This document shows, piece by piece, positions 27,301 to 64,000 of a stretch of DNA of 64,000 nucleotides. The first letter of the stretch is position 1. Each line of letters opens with the position of its first letter. A model generated the notes under the pieces. It searched no databases. It was not told where the DNA came from and saw only the letters and a program-made list of their open reading frames with translations. A program made the position numbers and the translations under genes. Location of the stretch: assembly GCA_965140415.1 (NCBI GenBank), contig OZ223209.1, positions 4,320,001 through 4,384,000 on the forward strand, read 5' to 3'. Source of the stretch: Myxococcota bacterium. GTDB lineage: Bacteria > Myxococcota_A > SURF-8.

Positions 27301-30300
27301 CAGCCATGCAAAGGCTTCAGCAAAGTCTTTCCTATCTACACGAATACGGTACGCCATCCGTTGGAAAGTTCAGCCGCCTGGCACTGCATCCAGGCAAATC
27401 GCTTGCGCCTTTCGGTTTCAACCGTCGCCATGAAGAAGAAGTTTCTCGCTCTCTGCAAGCGATGATCTTCGCCGAGTTGCAGCAATTCGAATGCAGTGCG
27501 AAGGCGTTGCGAGAAAAGGCGGAACTGATGGACAGTCTGCTCGCCTCGCTCGAAACGCCGGAAGACGAGCAACTGCGCGAACGCGGCATTGTTTATGCTC
27601 AACAGGGATCGGCAGCCTGGAAAGCTGGATATGGACAGCAAGCCGTGCGCTTCTTCTCCCAATCCTTTCAGAGCATGGAGCGCATTGGAGCCTCGGCTGT
27701 TTCTGAGACTGATCCAACCCTTGTTAAAGCCAGGCAACTTGGCTTGGAGAACGATCTTTATATTGAAACGTCCAACACCTCACTACTAGCCGGATTCGAT
27801 GTCGTTCATTTTTCCGAGCAAATCACAAGCGCCTGCGCTGCGGCTGAAGTTGTCGCCAAGCAGTTGAACCAAAACGTCGTTGTGGAACCGGGAACGATTA
27901 TCGAGGTCACTTCCCGCCTGCAACGCTTGACTTCCAGGCTGCTGCTGAACTCTCAACCCGACTCCCCCCCTCCCATTGCTCTACCTCTGGTTTGGCGCTT
28001 AAGCAGCGACCTTGCGGCCTTATCCATGGCCTATGCGCATTCTGAAGAAATAGTTTTAGCGCAGCAGCAAAGTAAAGACACAGCCATCCTGCAAGGTCTG
28101 CGGTCCATCGAACGCTACACGCAGGGCATTTCCCTGTATAAGCGCCTCATCGCCTGGACGGCTCCTACTCAAGAAGAAGATACAATACCGGTAGCGCAGC
28201 ACACTCTTTCTCCTTATCTTTTAGCGCGCATACACGTTACGGCCTTGACTAATCTTGCCGAATTGGCGGCCATGCTGGAAGGTCCGGAAAGACGCGCAGA
28301 AGAAGACAGCTACTCTAGTCGATATCTGAATCAGGCGCTTCAAATCTGCTCGCAGCAACAGCTTAAGGACGTCTGCTGGCTGGGGCGTATGTTACAGGCA
28401 AAATGGAACGGAGACTCCGAACAGGCTTTTAGCACGTTGGAAGAATACGGCAAAGACGGTCCCGTTCTATTGGGTAAATTGTACTTGGAACGCGCGGATG
28501 AAGTCCGCCACCGTCTGTTTAATACTGCGCGTTCTTTCGCACTACAGGAAAAAGACTGGCACAGCTTGTGGACGCTTTCAGAACGCGAAAACCGCCGGAT
28601 GATCGTCGATGAAATGGCCAAACTCGGTTTCGATGTGGACTCTTTGGAACTTAAATCGGTGGTATCCAGTTTGCAGGCAACGGTTGCTGCTTATCGACAG
28701 GAGGTAGAGAGCCAATCTCTAGAGGATGACGAAAAGACACGCGCTCAACACGAACAGCAACTCGCGAAACTCCGGGAAAACGTCGCCAAGCATATGATCG
28801 AGTTGCAGAAAAAGGCACCAAGACTGCATCGCCTTCTGGTGGTGGAACCCTTCGACATTCTTTCGGTACAGCAGGCGCTACGACCCGGACAAACGCTTGT
28901 CACGATTCTTCCTCTCGATACCGGACTTACCTTACTGGCGCTTGACCAACAGAATCTTCGCGGCGAGCAGCTACCGCTTTTCCTGCCACAATTCAATAAA
29001 GATCTACAATCCTGGATCGAGCGTCCCGAAACCCCACCGGAGTCTCTGCAACATCTTGCCGAAAAGATACTGTCATTGGTTGGAGGTTCCGACTTGGTCT
29101 ACCTCGATGCCGACCGGCTGGGGGTGGATCTTCCGTTTGCCTCCCTGCTGTCATCAATGGGCAAAACTAATCTCCGCCTGCTGCGCGTCAGCAGCGCCTG
29201 GGGACTTCTGGAATCCTACCAAAACCGCAAGCTTGCACAGAATAAAGGCATCGCCACTCTTTCCAACCAATATTCCGGCGATGCAAAACAGGAACCTGCG
29301 CCTCTTGTTGCATCATTCAATCGACTGAACTACAATAACTCCTGGCAACGTATTTCCGGCGACGACTTGACCCTGCAACAGGCCATGCCGGAGTTGCAAC
29401 GCACCCAGATACTCGCACTGATGCAACCTGCTGTGTTTGAGGGTGGCTCGGCTGCGAACCTGTGGCTTCTCTTCAATACGCCAACACCGGGTATTGGACA
29501 CTACAGCTTCATTCATCATCTCGACGCCCGCTTCAACGCCCAGCTTGTGCTGTTCTTCGATCTGCGCCACTCCGGCCAAGCTCGCAAGGAACGTTTGTTT
29601 CTGGAAACCATATTAAACGCGGTCGGCGTTCCTTCTTTCCTGGTCGCTACCGACTCAACCAAACCGGATACCATCGTGCGCTTTTTCGATGCGACATTAC
29701 CAAACTGGGCGAGTGATTCCCGCGATCAAGTATATTGGAAAGCCATGGGGCAATTTGATCGAACTACACCCGACGACATCCAACTGTACGGCTATGCCGG
29801 TATGAATGAAGACGATACACGCTCCTACGCCAAAAACAATCTGGCCGCCACCATCCGTGATGCCGTTGCCTACCAGACGCGCGGGGCGGCTCGCACTGCC
29901 GTTGAAACCTACGAGCAGGCGCTGGCGATCATGGATTACCTTCAAGATTACACGTTTCTGGACAAGTTATTGCAACAACTTGTGACGCAGTGTAACGACA
30001 TACAAGACTGGTCCCGTCTGATACATTACCAGTCGCGTATTCTTGAAAGAGCGCAAAAAGCCTACGACGCCGATCCCAAGCAAGTGGTTCCATATCTCAA
30101 TGCCAAGAAATCATTAGCCGATGCTTACACAAAGGCAAAGCTTTATGATGAGGCATTGCTTCAGAACCAGGATATCCTGGATGTTCTGTTGCAGGCAAAA
30201 CGGCTCTCGCTTTGCGGTCCCTATTACGAGCAACGCGGATTCATTCTGGAATTCGCTAGGCGCTATGAAGAAGCTTTAACGGCCTACCGCCAGGCTTACG

Positions 30301-48588: not shown

Positions 48589-48930
48589 GTAAAGTAAGCA
48601 TTCAAACATCTCAAGTAACAACGAGCCAGTCCACATCTCCCTCTTTTTCTCCCTGTTATATCTACTTTTAACTTGAACTTATATAGTATGCCGAATATAC
48701 TATGCACCGTATTTCTATGAATGTCGACTCGCCACAATTTTCACGGGATAAAATTCCTTTATGAGGTAAAGGGTTTGGCTTGTTCATACGATCAAGCCAC
48801 ATCGATTGTCGGTCAAAAGTACATCATCACGGAACGTACCTGTCTTGACGAACGACTGACACCCTCGACTCATGGATGTGAATACATGAAGGACTCGGTT
48901 GTACAGCCCTTTCGGTCAGGAGGTAAGACG

Positions 48931-51786
48931 ATGAGCAGAATCAATCGAAACTGGTTCCTTTTTGCAACGATGCTGATAATGTCCCTGTTTGCATTCGGCT
49001 GCTGGGGAGAAGACGAGAACGAAGTCGATCCCTGCACGCGCGACGCACAATGCCCTAATAGCGAACGTTGCGTAGAAGGCGTCTGCACTCCGGTAGATGA
49101 TCCGTCCGATGGAGATGAAGAAGACACGCGCGACTGCCAAACCGGCGAAATCGATTCCTGCCCCTGTTTAGGCGGAACGACCGGCTCCCGCCTCTGCCAG
49201 CAGAACGGGACATGGGGAAGTTGCAATTGCCCTGCGCCACCGGATGGCGATGCAACCGATGGCGACACTGCTGACGGCGATAAAGCCGATGGTGACTTCA
49301 CCGACGGCGATGCAATCGACGGCGACCACACCGACGGCGACAGGGACTTCGACTGGGACGATATCGATTGGTGTATCGATGGAGACTACTGGGTAGACGG
49401 CGATGCCCCCCCAGTCGATGGCGATGCCGATTTCCAGCCTCCGGATGGCGACGATCCGGTTGATGGCGACAGTATCCTTCCAGACGGTGACCTACTGGAT
49501 GGGGACTATACGGACGGAGACCAAATTGTCGATGGCGACGAGCCTCCGAACTACATCTACACCTGCGACGGCAACAACGTTCTTCGTCAAGACCCGAGTA
49601 TCGGCAACTGGGAGTTCTTATATAATTGCGAAGAGTATTACATGGTGTGTGAAAACGGTGCCTGTACCACACCGAATCCGGGAGACGAAGACGTTCCCAA
49701 CTATTGCAGCCACGATCTCGAATGTCCTGCCGGCTATGCCTGCCACGATGAATTGAACGAGTGTCGTCCCCTGGAATGCCAGTATCATCAAACCTGTCTG
49801 GGACAGTACGGCAACGGTTTCACCTGTCATTCCGATGGCTTATGTTATCTCGATTGCCTTTACAATGAGGATTGCCAGAGCGGCTATAGCTGCGTGCAGG
49901 GCATCTGTCGTGCCAGCAATGATTGCAACCCGACCATCGATCATCTCATCATTGCCGAAGGCGATGGTGTGATCAAAACAGGAGTGAGTAAGTCGCTTTC
50001 CGTACGAGCAGTCGATATCTACGGCAACTTGGTCAACCATGCCCTGGCATTCATCTGGGAAAGCGATTCGCCAAGCGTGGTGAGCGTAAACGCCAATGGA
50101 GAAATTACCGGGCAATCTGCCAATGGCACTGCCACCATCAGCGCGCGTATCTCCTGTAACTCACTGGCAGTAGCGCAGGTCAGCTATACCAACTACACCG
50201 TATCTAGCAGCGGACTTCGAGTGATCGCAATCGACACCATAACCGGTCTGCCTGTTTCAAACGCTACCGTACTTGCAGTGCAGGGCGAAACCCCTTACAG
50301 TCAAACGACCGTGAACGGCCAGGCAACATTCAACAATCTGGATTGCGGCAATACCGCCTGCGACGTGCATATCCTACATCCGGATTACAGCTATGTCAGC
50401 GCATTCGGTCTGCAAAACAACGATCTGTATTTCCCGCTTCAGCCGAACCGGGATCTATCGATTGCGGCGGGAGTCAAAGGAAATCTCGATTTCGAACCCA
50501 TCCCTGATATCATTCGGCAAGACATCGACTCCGGAGCCGCAGCCTTTTCCATTACCGGAGACTGGGCCGACATCGCCTATGAAGATCTGCTCGGTGAAAC
50601 CGTCATGACCCGCCTGAGACTCGGATCGGTTTTCGATGATATCGTCCCCATCGACAGCGCACGTGAATCCTACCTTCACGATGATCCGATGTTCGAACAA
50701 TACCGGGCGCTTGCGCAACCCGGAGCCAAGGCATTGTGGGGGTTTGCCGGATCTTTCAGTTTAAATGACATTATTACAATTGTAACCTCAGTCATGGGAG
50801 ACGAGTTTGATCTGATCCTATACCAGCAATTAATGAGCCCAATGCTGGAAGACTATTACTTCGACGTTCAGCCCGGCTTCGATCTCCAACCCGAACCGCG
50901 TCTGTTCGATGCGGAAGACCTGAACGGAAATAACAGCACCACCGACATGATACCCGATTACGCCGCACTGGATGATGTCGGCGGAATTCTCCGGGCGGAA
51001 TTCGTCCAAGGCCAGCGTATCGCGCTTCAATTCGGTGATTTGCCCGACATGCAGAGTGGTTGCGGTGACAGCGTATTCGCCATGATCGCGGCCAACGAGG
51101 CGGGAAGCGGTCTGACGCCGCAAGGATTCACCTGGGGACTGGATGATGATGCGGAAGACTTCAATCCCGGAGATTGCAAAGTCGGTTCCGAAAATAATGG
51201 AGTCTTCACCCTGCCCAGCAGCATCTCCGGTTCGATTTTGCAGCCGGAAAATTACACGATAATGGGAATGGCGCTTTCCTTATCCGGAATCAATATCGAG
51301 CAGGACCAAATGATGGCTTCGATGGTCATAGGCCCCGGTATCGACCTCCCCAGCTTCGCCCGATATGTGGATCATTCCGTAGTCTTCAAGCGCTTCGCCT
51401 CGCTGCCGCTTACAGCCCAGATGCCGGAATTCCTGGACATTCCACTTTCCGCGCAGTACGACTATACCAATGAGGCGCACACGTTACAGACAGATGCCGT
51501 GGCGGGTGCGTCTTTCTACCGGGCGCTGCTGTTCAGCGAAGATGAATCGAGCCAGCAGCGGCGTTGCTGGCAGGTTTACTGGCCGGCGGACCGGCAGAGC
51601 GTCAGTTTCGAGCAACCGGAAGGTGCGCAACAACGATTGGTCGATTTGCTCGGATTTTCGAGCGTGCAGGCGTTGAAACTGACCGGGCAAGTGAACTACC
51701 AGTATCTGATGCAATTTAACGACTTGAACCTGGATCAACTTAACCATGTCTTACAGGCGTATTCACAACATCCCGTACAGGATTAA
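48931..51786 (+). CDS. Large lipoprotein: Cys-rich modules, DGD repeats, Ig-like (Big_2-like) domain, unknown C-terminal region
   Basis: AGGAGG RBS before ATG 48931; lipobox AFGC; WESDSPSVVSVNANGEITG...GTATISA Ig motif. Confidence 0.82.
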   Translation: MSRINRNWFLFATMLIMSLFAFGCWGEDENEVDPCTRDAQCPNSERCVEGVCTPVDDPSDGDEEDTRDCQTGEIDSCPCLGGTTGSRLCQQNGTWGSCNCPAPPDGDATDGDTADGDKADGDFTDGDAIDGDHTDGDRDFDWDDIDWCIDGDYWVDGDAPPVDGDADFQPPDGDDPVDGDSILPDGDLLDGDYTDGDQIVDGDEPPNYIYTCDGNNVLRQDPSIGNWEFLYNCEEYYMVCENGACTTPNPGDEDVPNYCSHDLECPAGYACHDELNECRPLECQYHQTCLGQYGNGFTCHSDGLCYLDCLYNEDCQSGYSCVQGICRASNDCNPTIDHLIIAEGDGVIKTGVSKSLSVRAVDIYGNLVNHALAFIWESDSPSVVSVNANGEITGQSANGTATISARISCNSLAVAQVSYTNYTVSSSGLRVIAIDTITGLPVSNATVLAVQGETPYSQTTVNGQATFNNLDCGNTACDVHILHPDYSYVSAFGLQNNDLYFPLQPNRDLSIAAGVKGNLDFEPIPDIIRQDIDSGAAAFSITGDWADIAYEDLLGETVMTRLRLGSVFDDIVPIDSARESYLHDDPMFEQYRALAQPGAKALWGFAGSFSLNDIITIVTSVMGDEFDLILYQQLMSPMLEDYYFDVQPGFDLQPEPRLFDAEDLNGNNSTTDMIPDYAALDDVGGILRAEFVQGQRIALQFGDLPDMQSGCGDSVFAMIAANEAGSGLTPQGFTWGLDDDAEDFNPGDCKVGSENNGVFTLPSSISGSILQPENYTIMGMALSLSGINIEQDQMMASMVIGPGIDLPSFARYVDHSVVFKRFASLPLTAQMPEFLDIPLSAQYDYTNEAHTLQTDAVAGASFYRALLFSEDESSQQRRCWQVYWPADRQSVSFEQPEGAQQRLVDLLGFSSVQALKLTGQVNYQYLMQFNDLNLDQLNHVLQAYSQHPVQD
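49243..49341 (+). repeat. Coding tandem repeat, 15-nt period (DGDxx x7)
   Basis: DGDAT-DGDTA-DGDKA-DGDFT-DGDAI-DGDHT-DGD. Confidence 0.9.
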
Positions 51787-52512: not shown

Positions 52513-53214
52513 TTACCCACGTTTACCTTGCAATAACTGCTGAATAATCTCACGCGCGGATTGAGACTGCGGCGGGGGTTGCATGCGCTCGTTAATCAAG
52601 TCGGCCACGGTTTGGGCGGTCCAATCGGGAGAGACTTCGTGCTTAGCTGACGTCTCTTCATCGCTCTGTTGACCGCCTTCTTTTTGCCCACTCGAAGCGG
52701 ACGAATCGGAAGCATCTTCTGATTTTAAAGAATTGTCAGCATTCGGACTCTGTGCGCGTTCGCGTTCGTACGCATCATAGGCCTCGGCCAGCAAGTCGCC
52801 TTTTTCCACCAGCCGCTGGGCAGTACCGGCCTTGTCGTCCACCAACTCGTCGAATTCCTCCAGCAACTCGCCGATATCGCCGTTGTCACCGTTGTCACCA
52901 TTCTCTTCCAGGCTTTCATCGTCCGCCTGTACCACGACTTCCGGCTGCGGCTCTTGTTGCTCATCGAACTCACCGGAGGTAAGCTGATGCACCATTTTCC
53001 GGTGCGAACGCCGCATGATCGCAATGACTTTTTTTTCCAGCTTGTCGGGCTCCAGCTCCAAGTGCTCGTTATACTTGGTTTTTACAGACGCCAGTATCGT
53101 GCCATCCAAAAACAGATGTGAAATCACATGACCGTATTTCGGTCCGGAATCCTCCGTTTGGATATGGTAGATTTTTTCGTTTCTTTTGATATTGCTGTTG
53201 AGACCCGGAATCAT
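52513..53214 (-). CDS. Hypothetical protein: compact N-terminal domain plus acidic disordered tail
   Basis: N-terminal GLNSNIK..YHIQTEDSG...ISHLFLDGTILAS motif that I recall from deltaproteobacterial hypothetical proteins; GAGG RBS. Confidence 0.75.
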   Translation of the reverse strand: MIPGLNSNIKRNEKIYHIQTEDSGPKYGHVISHLFLDGTILASVKTKYNEHLELEPDKLEKKVIAIMRRSHRKMVHQLTSGEFDEQQEPQPEVVVQADDESLEENGDNGDNGDIGELLEEFDELVDDKAGTAQRLVEKGDLLAEAYDAYERERAQSPNADNSLKSEDASDSSASSGQKEGGQQSDEETSAKHEVSPDWTAQTVADLINERMQPPPQSQSAREIIQQLLQGKRG

Positions 53215-53394: not shown

Positions 53395-55623
53395 CTAACG
53401 CCGTTTGTGCCAACGCCGGGATCGACTTCCAAGCCAACCACCTTTTTGCTGTTGCATCAATTCTCTAAGCTTCGTGGCGGCTCGCTCCTGGCTGATTTTC
53501 CCACTCAGCAAATCATTCGTGATGTTATCCGCCTGCACGGTTCGCCAGATGCTGGCCACGAAATCGAATAACATCTCGATTTGTCGCGCACCCCATAGCG
53601 CCGGAGACAAAGCCCGGTGCTCGTGTAAGCCTTTGGCCGCTTCCGAGTACACCCCATTCAAGCGATCATACAATTTTCGCAGAGCGGGCCGCAAAGGCTC
53701 CCAGGCGGCGCTGGTCTGATCCAGCAGACTTTCGATCTTCATCAGTGCGGCGTGGCTGTCCATCACACCATAGTCCTCAAACGACATCAACTGGATGATC
53801 GCATCCTGCCAGTCATCCGGATTCTCGGTATCAAAACGCCCCAGTTGGGTCAACACACGATCGTATGCCTGCCAACGATACACAATCTCCAGACCCGGTC
53901 CTTTGATGTTCTGCATTCCCATGATTTTAGCATGATAGCCCGGCGGCACCTGACCCGCGATAAAGTGAATCAGCGGATCGCCCTTGATGGCGGAATCTCT
54001 TAGAACGACGACACTGCGTAAAACCTGCTCGACAAGGCGCTTACGATACTGGCGATTCAACTGTTCGATAGCGCCATTGGAAGCGCCTTTCTCTTCGAAT
54101 AGCTGTTGCAAGTCCCTGGCGATTGAATCCATCACCAGATGTCTGGCGGCGGTTTCGGCAAGAAACGGAAGGCTTGCGGAACCGACTGAAAATCGGAATT
54201 CCTTGTCCTGCAACAAAATGGACTCTACTTCCTGTAGCGAATGCCCCTTGATCTTTCTATGCTGCGCTTCACACCAGTTTTCCCACTGCTCTTCGCTCCA
54301 CTTACCGATGCGGTCGCTTTCGGGTAGTTGCTCAAACATCATCCGAATCGCAGTCAGAGCATCGGAATCCAGCCGCATGGCCGTGCATATCATTTCCAAA
54401 CGTTTTTCAGCCCGTGGCCGTTCCCGCTCGGGATCGTTCTTGAATTCCGTAATGTCAATGAGCGCCCACTTTCCGTAGCGCAGTTTCAACTCGTTATTGA
54501 TAAACCCACGCATACCGCGAACGTTCGATCCGACCACGATGTAACGATGGGCGAACACATCTTCAACGAGAATGCGGGCAAACACCTGAGACCGGCTGAT
54601 GCGATCGGCACGGTTATTGATCAAAGCCACCGCCCAACGATTTAGATCCCCTTCCTGCCCAATGCGTTCGAAACCGGTTCGTCTCCAATTGTTCATGAAA
54701 CCGGCGCGTTCGTTGGCCGACATGCCATTAACGAACTGCAACCAGCGCCCGGAAACTTCGGCCTGCGGAAATACGCGCAGCACTCCTATTTCCGGCACGA
54801 CCCGTTCGGTCATTTCCACCAGTGCCTGCTCGCGATCGATTCCCAACTCCTCCGCCAATCTCAACACCAATGCCACGTTGGCGGGATGTTCCTCGTAAGG
54901 AAAGCGCTGCATCATCATGCGTGGCACCAATAAAGGATCGCGTTCATTGACCACCATCAACTCGCTATCCATACGCCGCGCCTCTTCCTTTAACAACGGA
55001 AGCATCTGCACTTCGGTCGTCAGCACTTTTCCCTTTTTCGGAATGAAGTGCGAGATCACCTGGGCGACATCGAAACCGCTTGGACCTTGAATATCCTCGT
55101 GGTCGGGATAGGCATTGGTGATGGTGGTGTAATCATCGCGCATCCACTGGCGCTGGAGAATTTCGACATAACGTTGGTTTAATGCCATGCACTCCCACAA
55201 AAACACCTGGGAATTGCTCTTTGCCGCCAAAGACAACAGCTTTTCCTGTTCCCAAATGGAAGCCTTGTCGTAAGGTCGGAAGATGTAAAGCTCCAAAGGA
55301 TCGCGTCCGGGCAGCGAACGAATGAACATGGCCGAGGAACCGGTGGTCTTGGCGACTACATGGCTATCCAGACTCGCGAAAAGCGCAGCTTTCAATCGCT
55401 CGGTGCCGCTTTTTCCCCGCGTTCCCCAACCACCGATCACCAATGGTACTTTTGCCCGACTTCTGTAAATCCTCTGAAATGCAAAGGAATGCCGAGCAAG
55501 AAAATAAAGTGCCACGAGTAACGTAAAGACCATCAAGCTGAAAATAAGATTACCGGTGGGCGACAGGAAGTAACTCAAATAGGGACGAATGGCCAGTTCC
55601 AAGCTGGTGTATAGATCTTTCAC
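53395..55623 (-). CDS. pgsB: Poly-gamma-glutamate synthetase PgsB/CapB-like Mur-ligase-fold protein (extended, 742 aa)
   Basis: N-terminal TM; P-loop GTRGKSGTERL; AKTTGS; SIWEQ; WECMAL; ITNAYPDHEDIQGP; NGMSANE; INNRADRISRSQVF; GMQNIKG. GTG start with GGAGG RBS. Confidence 0.85.
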   Translation of the reverse strand: MKDLYTSLELAIRPYLSYFLSPTGNLIFSLMVFTLLVALYFLARHSFAFQRIYRSRAKVPLVIGGWGTRGKSGTERLKAALFASLDSHVVAKTTGSSAMFIRSLPGRDPLELYIFRPYDKASIWEQEKLLSLAAKSNSQVFLWECMALNQRYVEILQRQWMRDDYTTITNAYPDHEDIQGPSGFDVAQVISHFIPKKGKVLTTEVQMLPLLKEEARRMDSELMVVNERDPLLVPRMMMQRFPYEEHPANVALVLRLAEELGIDREQALVEMTERVVPEIGVLRVFPQAEVSGRWLQFVNGMSANERAGFMNNWRRTGFERIGQEGDLNRWAVALINNRADRISRSQVFARILVEDVFAHRYIVVGSNVRGMRGFINNELKLRYGKWALIDITEFKNDPERERPRAEKRLEMICTAMRLDSDALTAIRMMFEQLPESDRIGKWSEEQWENWCEAQHRKIKGHSLQEVESILLQDKEFRFSVGSASLPFLAETAARHLVMDSIARDLQQLFEEKGASNGAIEQLNRQYRKRLVEQVLRSVVVLRDSAIKGDPLIHFIAGQVPPGYHAKIMGMQNIKGPGLEIVYRWQAYDRVLTQLGRFDTENPDDWQDAIIQLMSFEDYGVMDSHAALMKIESLLDQTSAAWEPLRPALRKLYDRLNGVYSEAAKGLHEHRALSPALWGARQIEMLFDFVASIWRTVQADNITNDLLSGKISQERAATKLRELMQQQKGGWLGSRSRRWHKRR

Positions 55624-57689
55624 GATTGTTCCTCCAGTTCAAAGAACGAGCGAACATCAGGCAGATCCAAATCGACCTCGACTCCAAACAACTCGTAACG
55701 ATAGGGTTCAAATGAAATGCTGAAACCGAGCCGACTGCGTAGCGCCTCGATATAATCGATTCGCTTGGGTCGTTCAAGCTGCTGCATGGCATCATAGCGT
55801 TTGCGATTATACCATTCGTAATCAAAGTTCAATCGCTGCCTGGCGCGCAAACGCGAAAAGACTCCCTTGGGTTGTTGCACCTTTGTAATGCCGCAAGAAC
55901 TATAAAGGGAAACCTCCTTGGAGGCTTCGAGGCAATCGTCTGGTAACGGCAGATAGCGCCCCCATCCTCCCATTCGTTCCACCAATACGCGCTCGCCGGG
56001 AATGGTGGTCGGGTTGACTTCCGCCAGCCGTTCCGGGTGAGCCCGATGCGCAAAGCCATAAACCCGTCCGCGCGTATGCACGGTGTCGGAACGCATGTTG
56101 GGTCGCAGATGGCGAAACTCGTGCAATAATCTCCAAAGTTTGCGCCGAAAGCGCTCGCCTCGCTGCACTTTCAGCTTCCCATTTTTCACCGTGGCATACA
56201 AACCGGCGTCTGTTCTGGTCAAGCTGGCCATGATCCGCACCGCCTCGACGGCAGAGACTCCCTCTGGCAGCGCAACTTGAAATCGCTTTCCCCAATCCGT
56301 CTTTTCAGCCAAAGAGAATATCCGGTCCCGCAAATCTGTAAGAACGGGATCGATCCCGATTCGAATTTCTTCCAGTAACCCGGCAATCCGTTCCGTCTCT
56401 CCCGCTTCCTCACGAGCAACCAGGCGTTTGACCAAAGCCTGAACGAGTTTTACTTTTACCGCCTCGCTGTTTTCACCCTCCAAATCAAGAACCAGCCGCG
56501 CACATTCCTGCTGTGCAATCATGCGCACGACATCATTGGTGTCGCGACTCGCCCACCATCCCAAATAAGCAACCGCTTCATTCGCCTGACTATCGCCGGC
56601 GTTGATTTGGCGCAACAGGCGAGAAATCGTCTCTGCCAGGCGCGCGCGAATCGTGTACACCGAATCCGTCCTGGCGTTTTCCGCCTCGGCGATTTGCAGC
56701 AAGATTTCCAACCCGCCAATCGCCGTAAGCCGATCGCAGGCTTCAACACAAGCCAGTCTGGTATATTCGCTCGCATCGGGACGATCGGCCAACTCGGTCA
56801 ATTCCTTCAAGACCTGCTTTATCGGAACATCCGAATCCGCTAATGCGTGCACCGCATGGGCGCGCAGCAGGTAGCGGTCTCCCGATTCATCACCATCGCG
56901 CAATATGGGTAGCAGGTGCGTAAGAACGGCCTCTGTCCCCAGTCTTCCCATCAGATCGACCAGAGCAACTCGCACCCAGCGATCTTCTTCGACATTATTC
57001 AATAGCGACAGCAGCTCCTCGCCGTGTCGACTGTATATGCGCTGCTGCAACTCCGGCAACAGGTCAAGTATGGCCAGTATCACTCTCACCGCCGCCCTGC
57101 GAGCCTGTGCCTGACCTTCCCTGTTCAGGTAGTCGATCAGCGATGCGATGGTATTCTGGGCCAGTTCGCTGCCTGAAGGCGAATGAAGCGAATCGACATT
57201 CGCATCGATGGGCCGATATAAGCCTTCCAAAGCTTCCAGCGCCACGATCTGGCGCACCCACAAGGCCCAGCGTCCGATGGTCAGGCGTTCTTCCATCGCT
57301 TCCCAGTCTTCACTGGGAGCACTTTTCTTCCACTTGTCTCCCCACTCCGGCCACAGGTCCGGGCGCTTTCGAATCGTGTCTTCCAGAATGCTGCGACGTT
57401 CTTCTTCATCGGTCGCACGATAATACAACCCACGCCAGCGACGGATATTCTCGTATAATTCCTCTTCTGCCCCATGCCACTGCACCAGCAGACGAAGCAG
57501 CGTCACGTGCAACGCCCGTGCGACCTCCTGCGGTTCCTTTTTGCGCACACCCGCAGGAATCGACAACGTCACGGAAAGATCCTGCGCAACCTGTTCCACC
57601 GCCTCCGGGTTCAAACGCGCAGTGATGGGCCGAATCAGGCGGACCAGTTCCACACTCCAATCGATTTTGCCTCGTGCTTCGGCTACCAT
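55620..57689 (-). CDS. HEAT/ARM-repeat protein coupled to pgsB
   Basis: HEAT-like units (ARRAAVRVI, WVRVALVDLMGRLG, LRAHAVHALA, TRLACVEAC, VVRMIAQQ); 4-bp GTGA overlap with pgsB. Confidence 0.78.
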   Translation of the reverse strand: MVAEARGKIDWSVELVRLIRPITARLNPEAVEQVAQDLSVTLSIPAGVRKKEPQEVARALHVTLLRLLVQWHGAEEELYENIRRWRGLYYRATDEEERRSILEDTIRKRPDLWPEWGDKWKKSAPSEDWEAMEERLTIGRWALWVRQIVALEALEGLYRPIDANVDSLHSPSGSELAQNTIASLIDYLNREGQAQARRAAVRVILAILDLLPELQQRIYSRHGEELLSLLNNVEEDRWVRVALVDLMGRLGTEAVLTHLLPILRDGDESGDRYLLRAHAVHALADSDVPIKQVLKELTELADRPDASEYTRLACVEACDRLTAIGGLEILLQIAEAENARTDSVYTIRARLAETISRLLRQINAGDSQANEAVAYLGWWASRDTNDVVRMIAQQECARLVLDLEGENSEAVKVKLVQALVKRLVAREEAGETERIAGLLEEIRIGIDPVLTDLRDRIFSLAEKTDWGKRFQVALPEGVSAVEAVRIMASLTRTDAGLYATVKNGKLKVQRGERFRRKLWRLLHEFRHLRPNMRSDTVHTRGRVYGFAHRAHPERLAEVNPTTIPGERVLVERMGGWGRYLPLPDDCLEASKEVSLYSSCGITKVQQPKGVFSRLRARQRLNFDYEWYNRKRYDAMQQLERPKRIDYIEALRSRLGFSISFEPYRYELFGVEVDLDLPDVRSFFELEEQS

Positions 57690-60600
57690 TCACTCACCCA
57701 TTCTCGATGCGGATCGATTTGCCAGGCTGCGAAATCTTCGCCCGGCAAGGAGTCGCGCAGGCCCCTGTCCGTTGAAAATGCAAAACCAAGACCGGCAAAA
57801 AATCCGTGCTGGAGGCGATCCGGGTAGAAGTCGTACGAAATCTCCGGGGCAACACGCAACCAGCTAAGCGGCCAGAAATTGTATCGTCCTTCCAGATGCA
57901 CCTGATGCCGGTACAACCAGCCATCCCGATCGGCGTCGTCTGCAAGCGGTTGGAACCCATAATAGATCTCGCCCTGGAATCTGCCGAAAGCGATCTGATC
58001 GCCAATTCGCAACGCGAACCGGTCAGGCGAGTAGAAATCGTCGTTGGTGATGTAGCGCATGGACATAAACAGGCTGTTGTTAATCCAAGGCTGCCATGCC
58101 ATACGCAACCCGGCAAACAATCCGTAAGGATGATCCTTTCCATAGGGAGAGTAGACGTCCTCATCCATGTAATCCGGCACTTTGCGTAAGGTCCAGTCGT
58201 TCAAGCCCTGCCACTTCCAGAACGCACCGATTTCCGGTGTTAAAGAGAAACTGGAATTCGGCTCGAATCTGCGCCCGATACTGCCACTGAGCCGATTACC
58301 GCCAGCCAATCCCGTTTGAGTGTCCTGAACGGCGAACCGATTGGACAAGCTTATCCGCAATTCCGGTCCAGGAGTGATCCAGTATAGCTTTCCTTCAAGC
58401 AGGCTGGTCGGAGCCTCGTCTAACCGGAAGCGGCCCTCCGCCGCCATCGCCAGCCACAGATCCGCCCCTTCGACCCGACGTTTATACCCGAGCCGCGTGG
58501 ACAAATAGTGGTCGACCTCTTTAATCGGGCCGGTTTCATCGCGCAGTTCTCTACGTACACCCACTAAAAACGACAGCGTCCCCATACCGCTGTCATAGGA
58601 CACCGGATAGTCTTCCATCAAACGTAATGGAGTGGTAGTGGAAACCGGCATTGAGGCGGTGGCGGTTTCCGTTTTCTTGGACTTCCGCCGATCTTCCAAA
58701 CGAACTCCCTCGCCGCGATCCGCTTCCCGGGTATACAGTCGCAGTAACGCCGTAGACTGATTGGTCGGCCCAATCACGATGTGATAGTTTTCCGCATCTT
58801 CCAACCATAGTTGACGGCTGCCATCGGACATGATCTGGAACGGCTCTACCGAATTTCCGTTCGTCCGAACCTGCACATCCACGGCAGAAGCGACGCCCGA
58901 TCTTTCAAAGGAATCGACACGCAGAATCGTCGGACCCAACAAATGGAAACTCACCGGGCGCGCCGCGCTTGCACGCACTAACGATGTCTGCACGACCGGC
59001 AATAACCAGTACACATCGCCATCTTGTTGCGTCGGAATCCCTGCGACCTGCCGATCCACACCGAAACGAACGGTCGTTGCCGGAGTGTACAGATGCGAAG
59101 CAGGCCAGTGGTACAACTCAAGAATGTAATCCCCCGCTGTGGCCAAAGGTCTTTTCAACCTGCGCACTTCGCCTCGTTTAAGGTCCACGGTTTCAACGGA
59201 GACGCCATTCAACAACATCTCTATACGACAGGCTACAGGCGCATCGTGTACGGGCGGCGAAAACTGATAGCAACCGACCTCCATTACGGCGTTGGCGGAC
59301 CCATCCACCGGAAGATGCACGGAGATCGAAGAACCGGGTAACAGCATTTCCGCTGCGCCAACCTCTTCTTTCATACCCAATATCGCTTTCAGTAACGCCA
59401 GGTAGTTTTCATGCGCCTGGGGCAACAGGCGGGCTGCCTCTTCGCTGATGCGTTCCACCCCATCCATGCGCTCCACTCCGGCAAGCGGTTCCCAGTGGGT
59501 CGCCGACCAGAGCAGCGGGAACCACAGCCCCAAAGCGTCCCAATGCGTCTGCTCGTTCCAGCGTGCGGCACGTTGCAACATCGCCCGGAAAGACGATGGA
59601 ACGGGTTCGCCTGCTCCCACTTTTTGTGCGGCTGTTTGTATCCACCACGGTAAACAACCGGTATGCGACACACCTTTGAGCACCAAATCACTACAGGTGA
59701 GCATAGACTGCTCGTTACGCCCCTTTTCTACCTGCTTGACAAAACGTCGCCGCAGTTTCTCGCTCGCCGGACCGTGTCTCTCACCAACATCCACAGTAGC
59801 CGATAACGGAAGCGGTTTCTCGAAAGTAGCCGTACGATTGCAATAGCCGCGATCCAGCCGCTCCCTCAATCCAAGCATGCGCTGCTCGTTTTCCTGAGTT
59901 TTTGACACTTCGGCAGCGGCTCGCATCAGGTCTTCGCGAGCAAATTTCGTGTGCCCCAACCGACACAGGCAATCCGAGCGTTGCAACAACCATTCACCAC
60001 GTTGCTCGTTTTTTTCCGCTGGGAGGGCAGCCAGTTTCTCGCTTAGCGACTGTACCTCTTTCAACCGGCGGAAATAGTCAGACGTGCTTTCCTGCTTCGC
60101 AGTAGCAGTCACCTCCGGTTCGTTAACTCCCTCCAGTGGCCGGGGCATACGCAGCAGCATGCGAACGTGCCAGGCCTGCCGTGCAGCAGGGTCCATCCGC
60201 ACGCGAATGCGCTCGGAGCAATCCCCGGTCTGGAATGAAATGGAAACGGGTTGTGAAACGAAGGCATTGGGGCGGTTTGCCAATGGATAGCGGATACCGC
60301 TCGAACCGGAATTAACCTGTAATTGTACTTCTCTTGCTCCCATGCCCACGGTAAAGGTCACGGCCTCATCGGCGGAAGCAGTCGTGGGCGGGAATGCCTG
60401 GAACAGGGCATAACCACTGTATCCTTCCCTGGGAGCCTCGAAAACTACATCCTCTCCCGGCTTCACTTCCCAGGCCTGCACCAGCTTGGCTCCAGCCACT
60501 TGATCGCTTTGCCGTTCGATCATGCGCACCTGCATCCAGACATCCACGTCGTTGCGAGTCATCACGCGGACGGGCACGGAATCCGCCACCAGCACTCGAT

Positions 60601-62500
60601 GCAATTGAACGGGAGCCGTCGAGGTTAGCCAGACCGGCGTTTCATCGAAACGCAACTGTGCTCGCGCGTCTTTACCGGACGTAATCAGAGTCAAGGATCT
60701 TGCCACATTCGGTGCAAAACGAGAGGAGGTCAGCGTCGGTTGCTCTCCCAAACGCACAAGCGACAATCCTCCCGGCAGCGCATCGCTTTCAGGATATAGG
60801 GAACGCTGCTGGAAAACATACTCGCCGTGGTTGAATTCGTCTGCGGGCGGTTCCAGTTGTTGCCATATCGAATCGAGATACCACAACTCACGTAAAGCAC
60901 TGATCTGCTCCGTGCTTGCTTCTCCCTTTCGTAACGACGGCTCCAGTTGCCAGCCGGGATAGTAATAGCTGAACTGCGTGAAAACATGCTCCACCTGCTC
61001 GCGCCGGAACTGTTCCCCGCGTCGATCTTCCCAGGTCATCGATTCATGCGGCACGTCTACATCAAGCAACTGTAACCCTTGCTCCAATTCGGAAACGGTA
61101 AGAATCTCTCCTTCCGCCGAACAGTGATCCAAACGAAACGCGATCAGCTTCAGTATTTCTTCAGAGAATGCGGATTGATTGATCAAATGGCCATAATGCA
61201 GTTGCGCCACGTCGCATTGACCCAGGCGAATCGCCTGTTCGGTCTTTTCGAAGCAGGAGAACGAATCATGATCGTCGGAATAAAGAGCGTTCAGATTCTC
61301 TTCCCCATGCGCGGCATCTTCAATATGGCGTTTGTGCGTGCCGCTCTGAATGGACCACCAGGAGGCACGGCCACTCAACTCAACATGAAATCGGTGTTCG
61401 CCGGGAGGCACAAACACTTTGATCGTATCCCGCTTACCTAAAACGGCTCCCAAAGGCGAACGCAGTAGCGGAGCTTCTATCATCCATTCGTTTTCCGAAT
61501 ACGGTTCCCGATCCGGATACACCGGAATCGCATGTTCGAAAACGGAATCGCCATCTCGACGGACGCTCAATAAGGTTTCTTCTAAAACAGGCGTCGGCTC
61601 CAGCCTTACTTCCGGGCGGTATCGAATTTGCAATACGGCGGGACCGGTTGCGGTAAACTCGAAGGGCCGCTGCCCTCGGCAATATTGCAGTTCCTGATCC
61701 TCATCTTCCAACAGGTCGAAACATTCTTTGCCCGCCAGCTTTGACAGATCCACCACGTCATAGGCCCATTCCATCATTGGACGCTGACGGCTGACCTCCC
61801 AGATCGCCTGCTGTTGCAGAAACAACCGCACTCGTTCCGGTTTTACCTGTTCTGCCAGACCGCTGAAATGCACCCATTCCGATAAAAACCATAAGCGATC
61901 CGCAAGACTGCTCTGCACGGTCAACGGAGAATTTTCAGGGCGACCGGGTCGTAAGGCCGCCCGTTGCGCCCAATCCTTCAAACCTTCCTCGTAGTGCTCC
62001 CACACATAACTCCCAGAAACGGTACTGGCCATCCCGACCTTTAGCGAGGCATCTTTCCTACTGATCTGCCGACACATGATGGCCGGATCGCCCGGCATGC
62101 GCAAAAAGGCATCCGCCTGCAAAGTCTGTCCGTCTTTTTCCGTCGGGTACCAGGCCACGCCCTGCCCGTCCAGGGAAAGCCGGATATAGGGATTCTCATC
62201 CGAGTCGGCAGCCGGGCTGAAAAGCAGGATGTTACTGGAAGTCGATTCGGCACATAAGTAACGACCGGCTTTGGCTTTATAGGGACGCAGCGCTCTAAGC
62301 GCTTTTCCGCTTGCGGGATCGAGTGTTTCATTCAACGTGAATGTACGAACCGGAGCGACGAGCAACGTGGGGTTCTCTGTTTGAGCAGACAACGGCATCG
62401 CACTGCAAAGCAGCAGCCAATTAACTGCAAGACAAATTGTCCACCAAAGTCGTTTCACGTTATACGCCACCTTTGTCCCTAGCGTCCTGCCGATTTCCAA
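57683..62500 (-). CDS. 1605-aa exported protein with probable C-terminal outer-membrane beta-barrel
   Basis: Signal-like N-terminus (NWLLLCSAMPLSA); TPR-like middle segment; the last about 290 aa are alternating aromatic beta-strands (EGRYNFW, PEISYDFY, FFAGLGFAF); overlaps the next gene by 7 bp. Confidence 0.7.
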   Translation of the reverse strand: MEIGRTLGTKVAYNVKRLWWTICLAVNWLLLCSAMPLSAQTENPTLLVAPVRTFTLNETLDPASGKALRALRPYKAKAGRYLCAESTSSNILLFSPAADSDENPYIRLSLDGQGVAWYPTEKDGQTLQADAFLRMPGDPAIMCRQISRKDASLKVGMASTVSGSYVWEHYEEGLKDWAQRAALRPGRPENSPLTVQSSLADRLWFLSEWVHFSGLAEQVKPERVRLFLQQQAIWEVSRQRPMMEWAYDVVDLSKLAGKECFDLLEDEDQELQYCRGQRPFEFTATGPAVLQIRYRPEVRLEPTPVLEETLLSVRRDGDSVFEHAIPVYPDREPYSENEWMIEAPLLRSPLGAVLGKRDTIKVFVPPGEHRFHVELSGRASWWSIQSGTHKRHIEDAAHGEENLNALYSDDHDSFSCFEKTEQAIRLGQCDVAQLHYGHLINQSAFSEEILKLIAFRLDHCSAEGEILTVSELEQGLQLLDVDVPHESMTWEDRRGEQFRREQVEHVFTQFSYYYPGWQLEPSLRKGEASTEQISALRELWYLDSIWQQLEPPADEFNHGEYVFQQRSLYPESDALPGGLSLVRLGEQPTLTSSRFAPNVARSLTLITSGKDARAQLRFDETPVWLTSTAPVQLHRVLVADSVPVRVMTRNDVDVWMQVRMIERQSDQVAGAKLVQAWEVKPGEDVVFEAPREGYSGYALFQAFPPTTASADEAVTFTVGMGAREVQLQVNSGSSGIRYPLANRPNAFVSQPVSISFQTGDCSERIRVRMDPAARQAWHVRMLLRMPRPLEGVNEPEVTATAKQESTSDYFRRLKEVQSLSEKLAALPAEKNEQRGEWLLQRSDCLCRLGHTKFAREDLMRAAAEVSKTQENEQRMLGLRERLDRGYCNRTATFEKPLPLSATVDVGERHGPASEKLRRRFVKQVEKGRNEQSMLTCSDLVLKGVSHTGCLPWWIQTAAQKVGAGEPVPSSFRAMLQRAARWNEQTHWDALGLWFPLLWSATHWEPLAGVERMDGVERISEEAARLLPQAHENYLALLKAILGMKEEVGAAEMLLPGSSISVHLPVDGSANAVMEVGCYQFSPPVHDAPVACRIEMLLNGVSVETVDLKRGEVRRLKRPLATAGDYILELYHWPASHLYTPATTVRFGVDRQVAGIPTQQDGDVYWLLPVVQTSLVRASAARPVSFHLLGPTILRVDSFERSGVASAVDVQVRTNGNSVEPFQIMSDGSRQLWLEDAENYHIVIGPTNQSTALLRLYTREADRGEGVRLEDRRKSKKTETATASMPVSTTTPLRLMEDYPVSYDSGMGTLSFLVGVRRELRDETGPIKEVDHYLSTRLGYKRRVEGADLWLAMAAEGRFRLDEAPTSLLEGKLYWITPGPELRISLSNRFAVQDTQTGLAGGNRLSGSIGRRFEPNSSFSLTPEIGAFWKWQGLNDWTLRKVPDYMDEDVYSPYGKDHPYGLFAGLRMAWQPWINNSLFMSMRYITNDDFYSPDRFALRIGDQIAFGRFQGEIYYGFQPLADDADRDGWLYRHQVHLEGRYNFWPLSWLRVAPEISYDFYPDRLQHGFFAGLGFAFSTDRGLRDSLPGEDFAAWQIDPHREWVSEW

Positions 62501-64000
62501 ATCATGTATCCCTGTCCGACTTTCGGTTTCTCGACGGACGCGAATGCACGAACCCAGACTTCCCCCTGCCCTTTCAGCGTCAGGCGCAGCTGATGTCCGC
62601 CTGCCGCCGCTTCTTCAAACAGCGTCATCATAAATACTTCCGGCTGGCGAACCGTTTGCGAACGGGCGGCATCCAACACGGCGGAACTGGTCGGAGCGAT
62701 CATCAACTCCAACTCCTTATTGGCCGGTGTCACACCGGTCGAAATCGCCCAGCTTTTCAAGCGCGGTGCTCCCCGATCCAGTAAGCCGCTTAAGCGGGTT
62801 GCGCTGCGTTTTTTACCCACGCCATACGCCAGTACATTAATCGTTCGTTTGCCGCGCCCGGAATGCGAAACCGGAAGCAACATGGAACCGTCTTTTTGCA
62901 ACCGGCAAACCGTGCGCATCGCAAAAACATCCGCCCACGGAGCCTGCTTGACCGGCAGGTTGATCCAGTAACGCCCACCCTGTGAAGGTGCATGGAGCAG
63001 AACCTGATGTTCCCCACTTGCAACACGTTCGCTTAGTTCACCAACGACCATTCGAGCAGGACCGCCGGTTACCTTCTTGGTTTCCCATGTCAGACTAACC
63101 AGTTCTCCCAGTCGTTCGGAATTCCCCAGATCGTAACGCAGCATTACAGGACGCCCCAGGTAATCCTCCGGCACCGTCACATCGTAGTTCTGGCCCGGTC
63201 GAATTTCGGTGAACGTTCCATAACTCCAGGGCATCTCCCGCTCGGCTGGATCTTTTAAAGGCTCCAGCAACCCGGAACAGGTGGGAGTCCCCTGCGGTTG
63301 CAGCACTTCGTAGAAATTCGTCAACGATTCCTCGCCCGGCACAGGCAGATCCAATCGAGGCTGGGCGGCAATCCGCACCCTGCGCCCTTGTTTTATAAGA
63401 CGCTTTTCAGCCAGCGGCGGAACCGCCATCCAGCGGGAACGCGCGAAACTCTCGTTGCGCCAGCGATACGGTTCAACGTTTACAGCATACGCTTCGTCGA
63501 GTTGTTCCTCGCAATACAGACAACTTGGAGTCTGCACGATCACATCCACCGTTTCGGGCGAAGAAAGTCGCAGGGTATACTGACCTTCGGGAAAACGCAG
63601 AAAGCCCACCTGGGCATCACCGACAACCTGCGGGCTGGCCGGGTCCATGTCCGGATAGGATTCAAGCGCAGAAGGCAATGTAGTCGCCTGCATCTCGCCC
63701 GCGTACTTGACCTCTCCCTGCTGATCCACAACCTCGACCCCGATTGTGAACTGCGTTTCGCCTTTCTCCTCCGGCGTCATGGCCAGATAAGCCAACAGGC
63801 GCACGCTATCTCCTCTTCGTTGACCCGCATACAGTGGATACTCAACCGGCGACTGGCCAGGCAGAATGCGCGTAGCGGTAAAAGTTCTTGCCTTCGGTTG
63901 AATCAACGAAGCCGAATCTCCCACCAGTGGAGACGGCAACCACGTGACCTCTCCCAATACCGAGTCTCTCTCCCCCTTTTCCAATAGAGGCGCGATCGAC
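62479..64000 (-). CDS. Hypothetical beta-rich protein of the pgsB operon, 5'-truncated by window edge
   Basis: Frame stays open to the window end; at least 506 aa; overlaps the start region of the 1605-aa gene. Confidence 0.75.
   Translation of the reverse strand, partial: SIAPLLEKGERDSVLGEVTWLPSPLVGDSASLIQPKARTFTATRILPGQSPVEYPLYAGQRRGDSVRLLAYLAMTPEEKGETQFTIGVEVVDQQGEVKYAGEMQATTLPSALESYPDMDPASPQVVGDAQVGFLRFPEGQYTLRLSSPETVDVIVQTPSCLYCEEQLDEAYAVNVEPYRWRNESFARSRWMAVPPLAEKRLIKQGRRVRIAAQPRLDLPVPGEESLTNFYEVLQPQGTPTCSGLLEPLKDPAEREMPWSYGTFTEIRPGQNYDVTVPEDYLGRPVMLRYDLGNSERLGELVSLTWETKKVTGGPARMVVGELSERVASGEHQVLLHAPSQGGRYWINLPVKQAPWADVFAMRTVCRLQKDGSMLLPVSHSGRGKRTINVLAYGVGKKRSATRLSGLLDRGAPRLKSWAISTGVTPANKELELMIAPTSSAVLDAARSQTVRQPEVFMMTLFEEAAAGGHQLRLTLKGQGEVWVRAFASVEKPKVGQGYMIWKSAGR

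Follow-up and report, generated by a model that had tools for sequence, protein, structure and literature searches.

The 64,000-nucleotide stretch of Myxococcota DNA analysed here (the window; contig OZ223209.1, positions 4320001–4384000 of the forward strand) ends in the downstream half of an operon built around a long, membrane-anchored ligase of the PgsB type. On balance, we consider it probable that this operon encodes a machine that spans the cell envelope of a diderm bacterium, synthesising a poly-gamma-glutamate-like polyamide and exporting it over both membranes; product, path and export are what we infer from the genes and their predicted structures. The genome that contains the window is one contig of 5.98 Mb with a completeness of 93.7%, and the cell is regarded as diderm because this genome contains BamA and a heptosyltransferase gene.

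Four minus-strand open reading frames (ORFs) abut at the end of the window. They occupy positions 53395–55623, 55620–57689, 57683–62500 and 62479 to the window end, where the fourth is open at its 5' side. Successive ORFs overlap by 4, 7 and 22 bases; the last overlap could instead be a gap of about 20 bases, should the 1605-residue protein encoded by the third ORF begin at an internal GTG. An earlier note on this DNA had described a PgsB-like gene as the last of at least four overlapping, coupled genes, and the four ORFs, together with a match of the most downstream one to the PgsB family TIGR04012 (E = 2.2e-64), confirm that description. The note had also called the fourth gene truncated. 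In the next 20 kb of the contig this gene is completed 1,082 bases beyond the window end, and it encodes 867 residues in full (L002 479–3082). Directly upstream of it, at a distance of 1,079 bases from the window end, begins a gene for a 1057-residue protein with two CapC domains (the double CapC), followed by genes for a 680-residue CHASE2 protein, a 583-residue sedolisin-type (S53) peptidase and a 294-residue FGE-sulfatase-like protein. The operon genes beyond the window are spaced by at most 24 bases or overlap. The run thus continues past the window with close spacing, and the operon therefore comprises at least eight genes (~20.6 kb), of which the window holds the downstream half. A 388-base gap and then a divergent HEAT-repeat gene bound it on the upstream side. 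Neither pgsC nor pgsA lies in the window, as the note had stated; its suggestion to read the upstream contig for pgsC/capC and capA led to the double CapC, whereas PgsA/CapA did not appear in the operon.

The ligase (742 aa, GTG start, 53395–55623; like all operon features in the window, on the minus strand) matched TIGR04012 with 217.6 bits over residues 46–376. No other NCBIfam family was matched at E ≤ 0.1, those of MurC–F, FolC and CphA included, and there was no Pfam match; the enzyme is of the PgsB type, as the earlier note had held. A hydrophobicity scan placed an N-terminal transmembrane helix at residues 25–43 (55495–55551), ahead of the Mur-ligase-type catalytic region at residues 46–376 (54496–55488), which is delimited by the extent of the TIGR04012 match and contains the P-loop GGWGTRGKS and an NAYPDHED motif. 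Behind its N-terminal membrane anchor the ligase thus has the fold of Mur ligases, complete with P-loop, Mg-binding Glu and the DH motif. Across 60 sequences, including the canonical PgsB paralogue of the same genome, columns G67–S72, E144, N170, D174 and H175 were invariant, and conserved motifs in the C-terminal part include PPG, GxQNIKGxGL, YRW and QKGGW.

Over residues 58–366 the ligase is 34% identical to this canonical 397-aa PgsB. The C-terminal motif of the canonical protein (its residues 371–385) realigns only at ligase residues 567–581. Relative to the canonical protein, the long form is thus enlarged by ~180 inserted aa and by a further ~160 aa at its C-terminus. The insertion is all-helical and has no counterpart in canonical PgsB (residues 377–555; 53959–54495); alignment and model assign the final strands of the C-domain and the helical extension to residues 556–742 (53398–53958). 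In the structural model, based on 60 sequences (predicted local distance difference test, pLDDT, 92.1; predicted template-modelling score, pTM, 0.88), insertion and extension are both helical, and residues 368–537 contain no secondary structure other than helices. The fold was matched by FolC, MurE, CphA1 and MurC (Foldseek E ~1e-8 to 1e-7; template-modelling (TM) score to target 0.4–0.5). These enzymes of the Mur ligase superfamily (FolC/FPGS, MurC–F, CphA1) share the ATP-binding and C-terminal domain fold with the ligase but, unlike it, have no membrane anchor and no CapC partner, and the ligase does not belong to them at sequence level. A long-ligase profile gave 0 matches to PDB sequences at E ≤ 0.01, and 460 long-ligase representatives were found at E ≤ 1e-30 in a 50%-identity library. 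Judged by its sequence, the ligase is a close outlier subfamily of PgsB, not an equivalog.

A canonical pgsB–pgsC–TIGR04332 cassette is located elsewhere in the genome (contig 2878249–2883693, minus strand), with NCBIfam scores above all cut-offs: ~431.5–431.8 bits for PgsB (397 aa), 125.5 for PgsC (182 aa) and 325.8 for the TIGR04332 'poly-gamma-glutamate system protein' (381 aa). The system in the window is therefore a second, paralogous one. Both contain the same two core families, but the canonical cassette is short (397 + 182 + 381 aa) and has no HEAT, barrel or 867-aa partner, whereas the window system has all three. Immediately upstream of the canonical cassette are the polyamine-synthesis genes for AdoMet decarboxylase, pyruvoyl arginine decarboxylase, spermidine synthase and agmatinase.

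The double CapC gene, three genes upstream of the ligase gene, encodes two CapC/PgsC domains in one 1057-aa chain (PF14102, E = 1.1e-37). The complex of double CapC residues 1–380 with ligase residues 1–600 was modelled in three runs alongside three controls. The runs gave complex scores of 0.73, 0.73 and 0.72, whereas the best control scored 0.00; 58 of 80 solved complexes attained this mark, as did 2 of 110 mismatched pairs. At least 93% of the contacts were shared between runs, and the pLDDT of the partner was ≥78. Ligase residues 15–52, which include the transmembrane helix, pack on the membrane domain of the double CapC, and the predicted contacts join this helix and the loops 117–124 and 151–160 of the ligase to CapC residues 76–110, 199–241 and 350–364. 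Because the ligase profile has no match among PDB sequences, the score is unlikely to be the memory of a solved complex. The model supports binding of the ligase to the double CapC.

The gene next to that of the ligase (55620–57689) encodes a 689-aa HEAT-repeat protein, as the earlier note had claimed (HEAT_2, E = 8.2e-8, above the cut-off). Its best conserved part, residues 485–663 (55701–56237), is a C-terminal domain of no known family that tblastn recovered in most of the 80 related loci described below. In all 80 of these the HEAT part lies directly upstream of the ligase, and in 73 the two share one stop-free frame; likewise, 132 of the 150 best ligase relatives in the 50%-identity library are at least 1290 aa long, with the ligase part starting at residue ~600–810. 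A hydrophobicity scan of the HEAT protein revealed no hydrophobic segment or signal peptide. Because it lacks these, and because in 73 of the 80 loci it is joined to the ligase, the HEAT protein is assigned to the cytoplasm as a partner of the ligase. The fused forms have a short hydrophobic stretch and a transmembrane helix between the two parts, which would form a hairpin and leave both HEAT part and ligase in the cytoplasm.

The third ORF (57683–62500) encodes a 1605-aa protein that is probably exported to the envelope, with a signal-peptide-like hydrophobic segment at residues 21–39 and a predicted outer-membrane barrel near its end. No Pfam or NCBIfam family was matched at E ≤ 0.1, BCSC_C and PgaA_barrel included. 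A model of residues 776–1605, based on 53 sequences (mean pLDDT 80.7, pTM 0.50), shows three regions: nine helices forming a TPR-like helical-repeat region (residues 806–999; 59504–60085), a β-sandwich region (residues 1051–1260; 58721–59350; strands at model residues 276–485, pLDDT mostly 80–95) and a 14-strand β-barrel (residues 1308–1575; 57776–58579) with a pLDDT of ~95. The best Foldseek match of the barrel was OmpG (E = 8e-9, TM score 0.63–0.67). BcsC entry 9b8h could be aligned with helices and barrel alike (model residues 28–821, Z = 14.2). In an Atlas search by features, BcsC_C and PgaA_barrel clusters appeared at 0.78–0.80, which is a lead only. The barrel-like C-terminus noted earlier is thus well modelled and matches outer-membrane barrels. 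We read the protein as a predicted outer-membrane barrel behind helical repeats; its resemblance to the polysaccharide porins is one of architecture, and the fold match is no proof of common descent with them.

This arrangement also bears on the organisation that the earlier note had suggested, namely synthase plus TPR protein plus porin. Repeats followed by a barrel do occur, within the 1605-aa protein; the HEAT protein does not stand in for the TPR component, as it is cytoplasmic. A role of the HEAT protein as a periplasmic TPR-type scaffold was rejected on account of its missing signal peptide and its fusion to the ligase.

The 867-aa protein, whose C-terminal 506 residues are encoded in the window (62479–64000), belongs to no known family. 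It has one N-terminal hydrophobic helix and no Pfam match, and an Atlas search with it returned 'hypothetical protein' clusters only. No paralogy between the 867-aa and 1605-aa proteins was found (best E = 0.76).

Relatives of the operon were collected in an alignment-based scan with one genome per species; a single-protein search had found none. At least 565 species genomes with a long ligase were recovered among the 599 pattern matches listed. For linkage counts 80 loci were kept, of which 63 have a full 10-kb upstream flank, and protein families were traced on all ORFs with iterated hidden Markov models (HMMER), overlap-filtered ORFs having lost 11 ligase genes in GC-rich genomes. The 80 loci come from Myxococcota, Planctomycetota, Poribacteria, Verrucomicrobiota, Gamma- and Zetaproteobacteria, Desulfobacterota, Nitrospirota, Cloacimonadota, Spirochaetes and others; by their record titles all are diderm and none is of a Gram-positive lineage. 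The closest operon among the relatives listed was found in a 'Deltaproteobacteria' metagenome-assembled genome (MAG; locus L003). RpoB of the present genome is 72% identical to that of this MAG and 69% identical to that of Cystobacter, which, with a RomY-domain gene next to the operon, marks the host as a deep-branching bacterium of the Myxococcota type.

The partner genes proved to be conserved neighbours. Besides the HEAT part, present in every locus, the barrel-protein family occurred in 58 of the 80 loci (50 of the 63 with full flanks), the 867-aa family in 49 (46 of 63) and the hydrolase-like/CapC family to which the double CapC is related in 50 (48 of 63). The 13 full-flank loci without a barrel gene comprise 11 Sorangium genomes and the loci L058 and L081. 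Sorangium cellulosum So ce56 has its cassette at two places: the S53, double-CapC, 867-aa-like and barrel genes form one group at ~10.48–10.50 Mb, and the HEAT–ligase fusion lies at ~10.37 Mb, ~106–120 kb from the rest. In all five other carriers that were searched, the sole CapC domains were two within one ORF of 1060–1240 aa, at a distance of 12–14 kb from the ligase gene in four and ~120 kb in Sorangium. Upstream of this CapC gene is a CHASE2 gene in three of the five genomes (Marinobacter, Halomonas, Uabimicrobium) and an S53 gene in the other two (Corallococcus, Sorangium). Within 10 kb of the ligase, the S53, FGE-like, 231-aa barrel-like and divergent 722-aa HEAT proteins of the present genome had relatives in 0 of the 80 loci, as expected because these genes lie further upstream.

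In most related operons the 867-aa and barrel genes are separated by a gene for a protein of ~300 aa. These stand-alone proteins are homologous to residues 662–886 of the double CapC (hhalign probability 95.4%). The stand-alone family has a fully conserved set of His, Asp, His, His and Glu; in the copy fused into the double CapC, the corresponding His/Asp positions are taken by Arg or other residues. The ~300-aa gene is absent from the operon studied here; an unlinked copy is located at contig 3089214–3090218 (plus strand) and encodes a 334-aa protein (E = 4.6e-59 to the family profile) with all His/Asp/His/His/Glu motifs intact and a lipoprotein-like signal sequence. The stand-alone proteins, with their conserved His/Asp/His/His/Glu set, may be related to the zinc gamma-PGA (poly-gamma-glutamate) hydrolases PghP/PghL (PF05908), although their sequence matches to this family are weak and under the cut-off.

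These parts can be assembled into a putative path from cytoplasm to cell surface. The membrane-anchored long ligase would add glutamate units at the cytoplasmic face with ATP, alongside its HEAT partner. Its N-terminal helix would dock into the ten-helix double-CapC membrane protein, through which the chain may be passed over the inner membrane. In the periplasm, the two hydrolase-like domains of the double CapC, with their conserved His/Asp lost, and the membrane-anchored 867-aa protein could retain or steer the chain. The 1605-aa protein, with its helical repeats, β-sandwiches and 14-strand, arginine-lined barrel, would then carry it through the outer membrane. The stand-alone hydrolase-like enzyme and the S53 peptidase may trim or release the polymer, the CHASE2 sensor protein may regulate the system, and the S53 peptidase and the FGE-like protein could have roles in regulation or processing.

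Several findings weigh against this proposal. The ligase falls short of the TIGR04012 equivalog cut-off of 222.7 bits (219.1 bits in a six-frame search), and the double CapC, with 65.7 bits, is under the TIGR04011 cut-off of 96.45; as both are below their equivalog cut-offs, substrate or product may differ from gamma-PGA. PgsA/CapA (PF09587, PGA_cap) is absent from the operon and matched in the genome only at 2.047 and 2.196 Mb. The canonical cassette raises the question of why the cell would need a second polyglutamate system. The hydrolase likeness is slight: PF05908 was matched in 2 of 28 stand-alone proteins (E = 0.004 and 0.019, profile positions 12–179, under the 22-bit cut-off), gave no match at E ≤ 1 in this 93.7% complete genome, and a profile of the ~300-aa family retrieved nothing relevant from PDB sequences (three chance matches, E = 0.36–0.69). 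For the barrel, VIA-align, which is independent of Foldseek, ranked generic 14-strand porins (CymA, Z = 19.1; OmpG, 17.9) above the exopolysaccharide porins (PelBC and BcsC, both 14.8; PgaA, 14.3), and FhaC and CdiB (both 14.2) came out about equal to PgaA. The barrel also stops short of the C-terminus of the 1605-aa protein, and the tails of related proteins are not conserved. Finally, in the full-text literature searched, with subscription journals and supplements outside the search, we found no experimental paper on the system and no polymer reported from any carrier.

Instead of being exported, a polyglutamate-like polymer could be kept in the periplasm or fixed to the wall or outer membrane, with the barrel protein serving as an anchor or scaffold; attachment to peptidoglycan is known from the Bacillus capsule. 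The closeness of the barrel to general porins is consistent with such retention, the large periplasmic β-rich parts and the dead hydrolase-like domains could merely bind polymer, and the lipoprotein-like signal of the stand-alone hydrolase-like protein in this genome would place that protein in the periplasm. We nevertheless consider retention unlikely. Helical repeats and then a barrel in one exported protein is the arrangement of BcsC, PgaA and PelB, and the barrel gene stays with the synthase genes across phyla. The lumen also appears arginine-rich, as expected for the passage of a polyanion (15 Arg and 3 Lys against 2 Asp and 7 Glu), although this crude estimate is a guess from hydrophobicity phase and not from coordinates.

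Alternatively, the canonical cassette may make the PGA of this organism, while the long ligase builds another amide polymer or adds glutamyl or amino-acid chains to an envelope protein, lipid or glycan. We assign this a low probability. It would accommodate the sub-threshold scores of both ligase and CapC, the insertion, extension and HEAT partner that have no counterpart in canonical PgsB, the separate cassette with scores above all cut-offs, and the co-encoded FGE-like protein and S53 peptidase. Against it, the double CapC is the sole CapC in the five other carriers searched, and the long-form system is therefore the sole PgsB/C system in most carriers. In addition, the invariant residues shared with the canonical paralogue cover the whole ATP and Mg core, and the hydrolase-like partners, if weakly, match PF05908. 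That the genes are chance neighbours, or the ligase an ordinary MurC–F/FolC/CphA-type enzyme unrelated to polymer export, is very improbable: the best solved fold matches are indeed Mur-type enzymes, but the PgsB match at E = 2e-64 stands against no Mur, FolC or CphA family at E ≤ 0.1 and no PDB match at E ≤ 0.01, gene order is conserved over many phyla with a HEAT–ligase fusion in 73 of 80 loci, and the predicted ligase–CapC interface passed its controls.

Compared with the Bacillus systems PgsB–PgsC–PgsA(–PgsE) and CapBCA(E), the operon shares a membrane-anchored, ATP-dependent Mur-type ligase with PgsB motifs and a CapC/PgsC partner. It differs in that the ligase has about double the length and is accompanied by or fused to a HEAT part, a single chain contains CapC in duplicate together with two hydrolase-like domains, PgsA is missing from the operon, the host is diderm and an outer-membrane barrel protein is encoded. 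The exopolysaccharide systems with BcsC (cellulose), PgaA (poly-N-acetylglucosamine, PNAG), PelB/PelC (Pel) and AlgK/AlgE (alginate) likewise encode an exported repeats-then-barrel protein beside an inner-membrane synthase gene, but here the synthase is an amide ligase rather than a glycosyltransferase and there is no shared sequence family. Porins of the BcsC, PgaA, PelB and AlgE type have 16–18 strands, whereas 14 are predicted here, together with extra β-sandwich domains and a second large periplasmic protein.

Work on poly-gamma-glutamate has been almost entirely in Gram-positive bacteria. A 2013 review (PMC3815933) lists Fusobacterium nucleatum as the only Gram-negative producer, with no mention of the outer membrane, and the pathway described in a 2026 review is that of Bacillus only (PMC13721041). 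In CapsuleFinder, CapB plus CapC counted as a 'PGA capsule' system, and such systems were scored in most phyla, Planctomycetes in particular (PMC5542703). Many diderm phyla have CapB/CapC according to genome surveys and MAG papers, which give no account of how the polymer would cross the outer membrane (PMC5542703, PMC9324843). PgsB and PgsC pairs in many diderm phyla are thus already known. For the HEAT fusion, the double CapC and the barrel partner, by contrast, no account turned up in the full-text search described above.

On the downstream side of the operon, 180 bases from the ligase gene, a gene at 52513–53214 (minus strand) encodes a regulatory protein with a RomY N-terminal domain (NF053858, 92.9 bits, cut-off 50). 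RomY is a Myxococcus-type polarity regulator, and the gene is probably outside the operon. The frequency of terminator-like and promoter-like sites 3' of the ligase gene did not exceed that in shuffled sequence. Of the five downstream and flanking proteins that were searched, four gave no Pfam match at E ≤ 0.001. Elsewhere in the window, a 2834-aa ORF (24318–32822, plus strand) is likewise without a Pfam family, as are further large ORFs such as that at 48721–51786 (1021 aa). At the upstream end, the gene at L002 11350–12045 encodes a 231-aa protein with a weak match to outer-membrane barrels, and the divergent gene at L002 12026–14194 (plus strand), ~10–12 kb past the window end, encodes a 722-aa protein with five HEAT_2/PBS-lyase HEAT repeats and one hydrophobic helix.

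The long ligases form a large, unannotated PgsB-type subfamily, accompanied by three partner protein families without a known domain. The cassette supplies named candidate parts for the crossing of the outer membrane by a polyglutamate-like polymer. We tentatively suggest that polyamide export through the outer membrane could here have its first known route, 'synthase-dependent' in style, in which a HEAT-bearing PgsB and a double-CapC channel would feed a repeat-plus-barrel porin; this organisation would have evolved in parallel to the systems for cellulose, PNAG, Pel and alginate. Carriers include culturable Marinobacter, Halomonas/Vreelandella, Corallococcus, Myxococcus and Sorangium, some with established genetics, and the question of outer-membrane crossing is therefore directly testable. 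If the proposal is true, bacteria that retain the canonical cassette would make a second, distinct envelope polymer.

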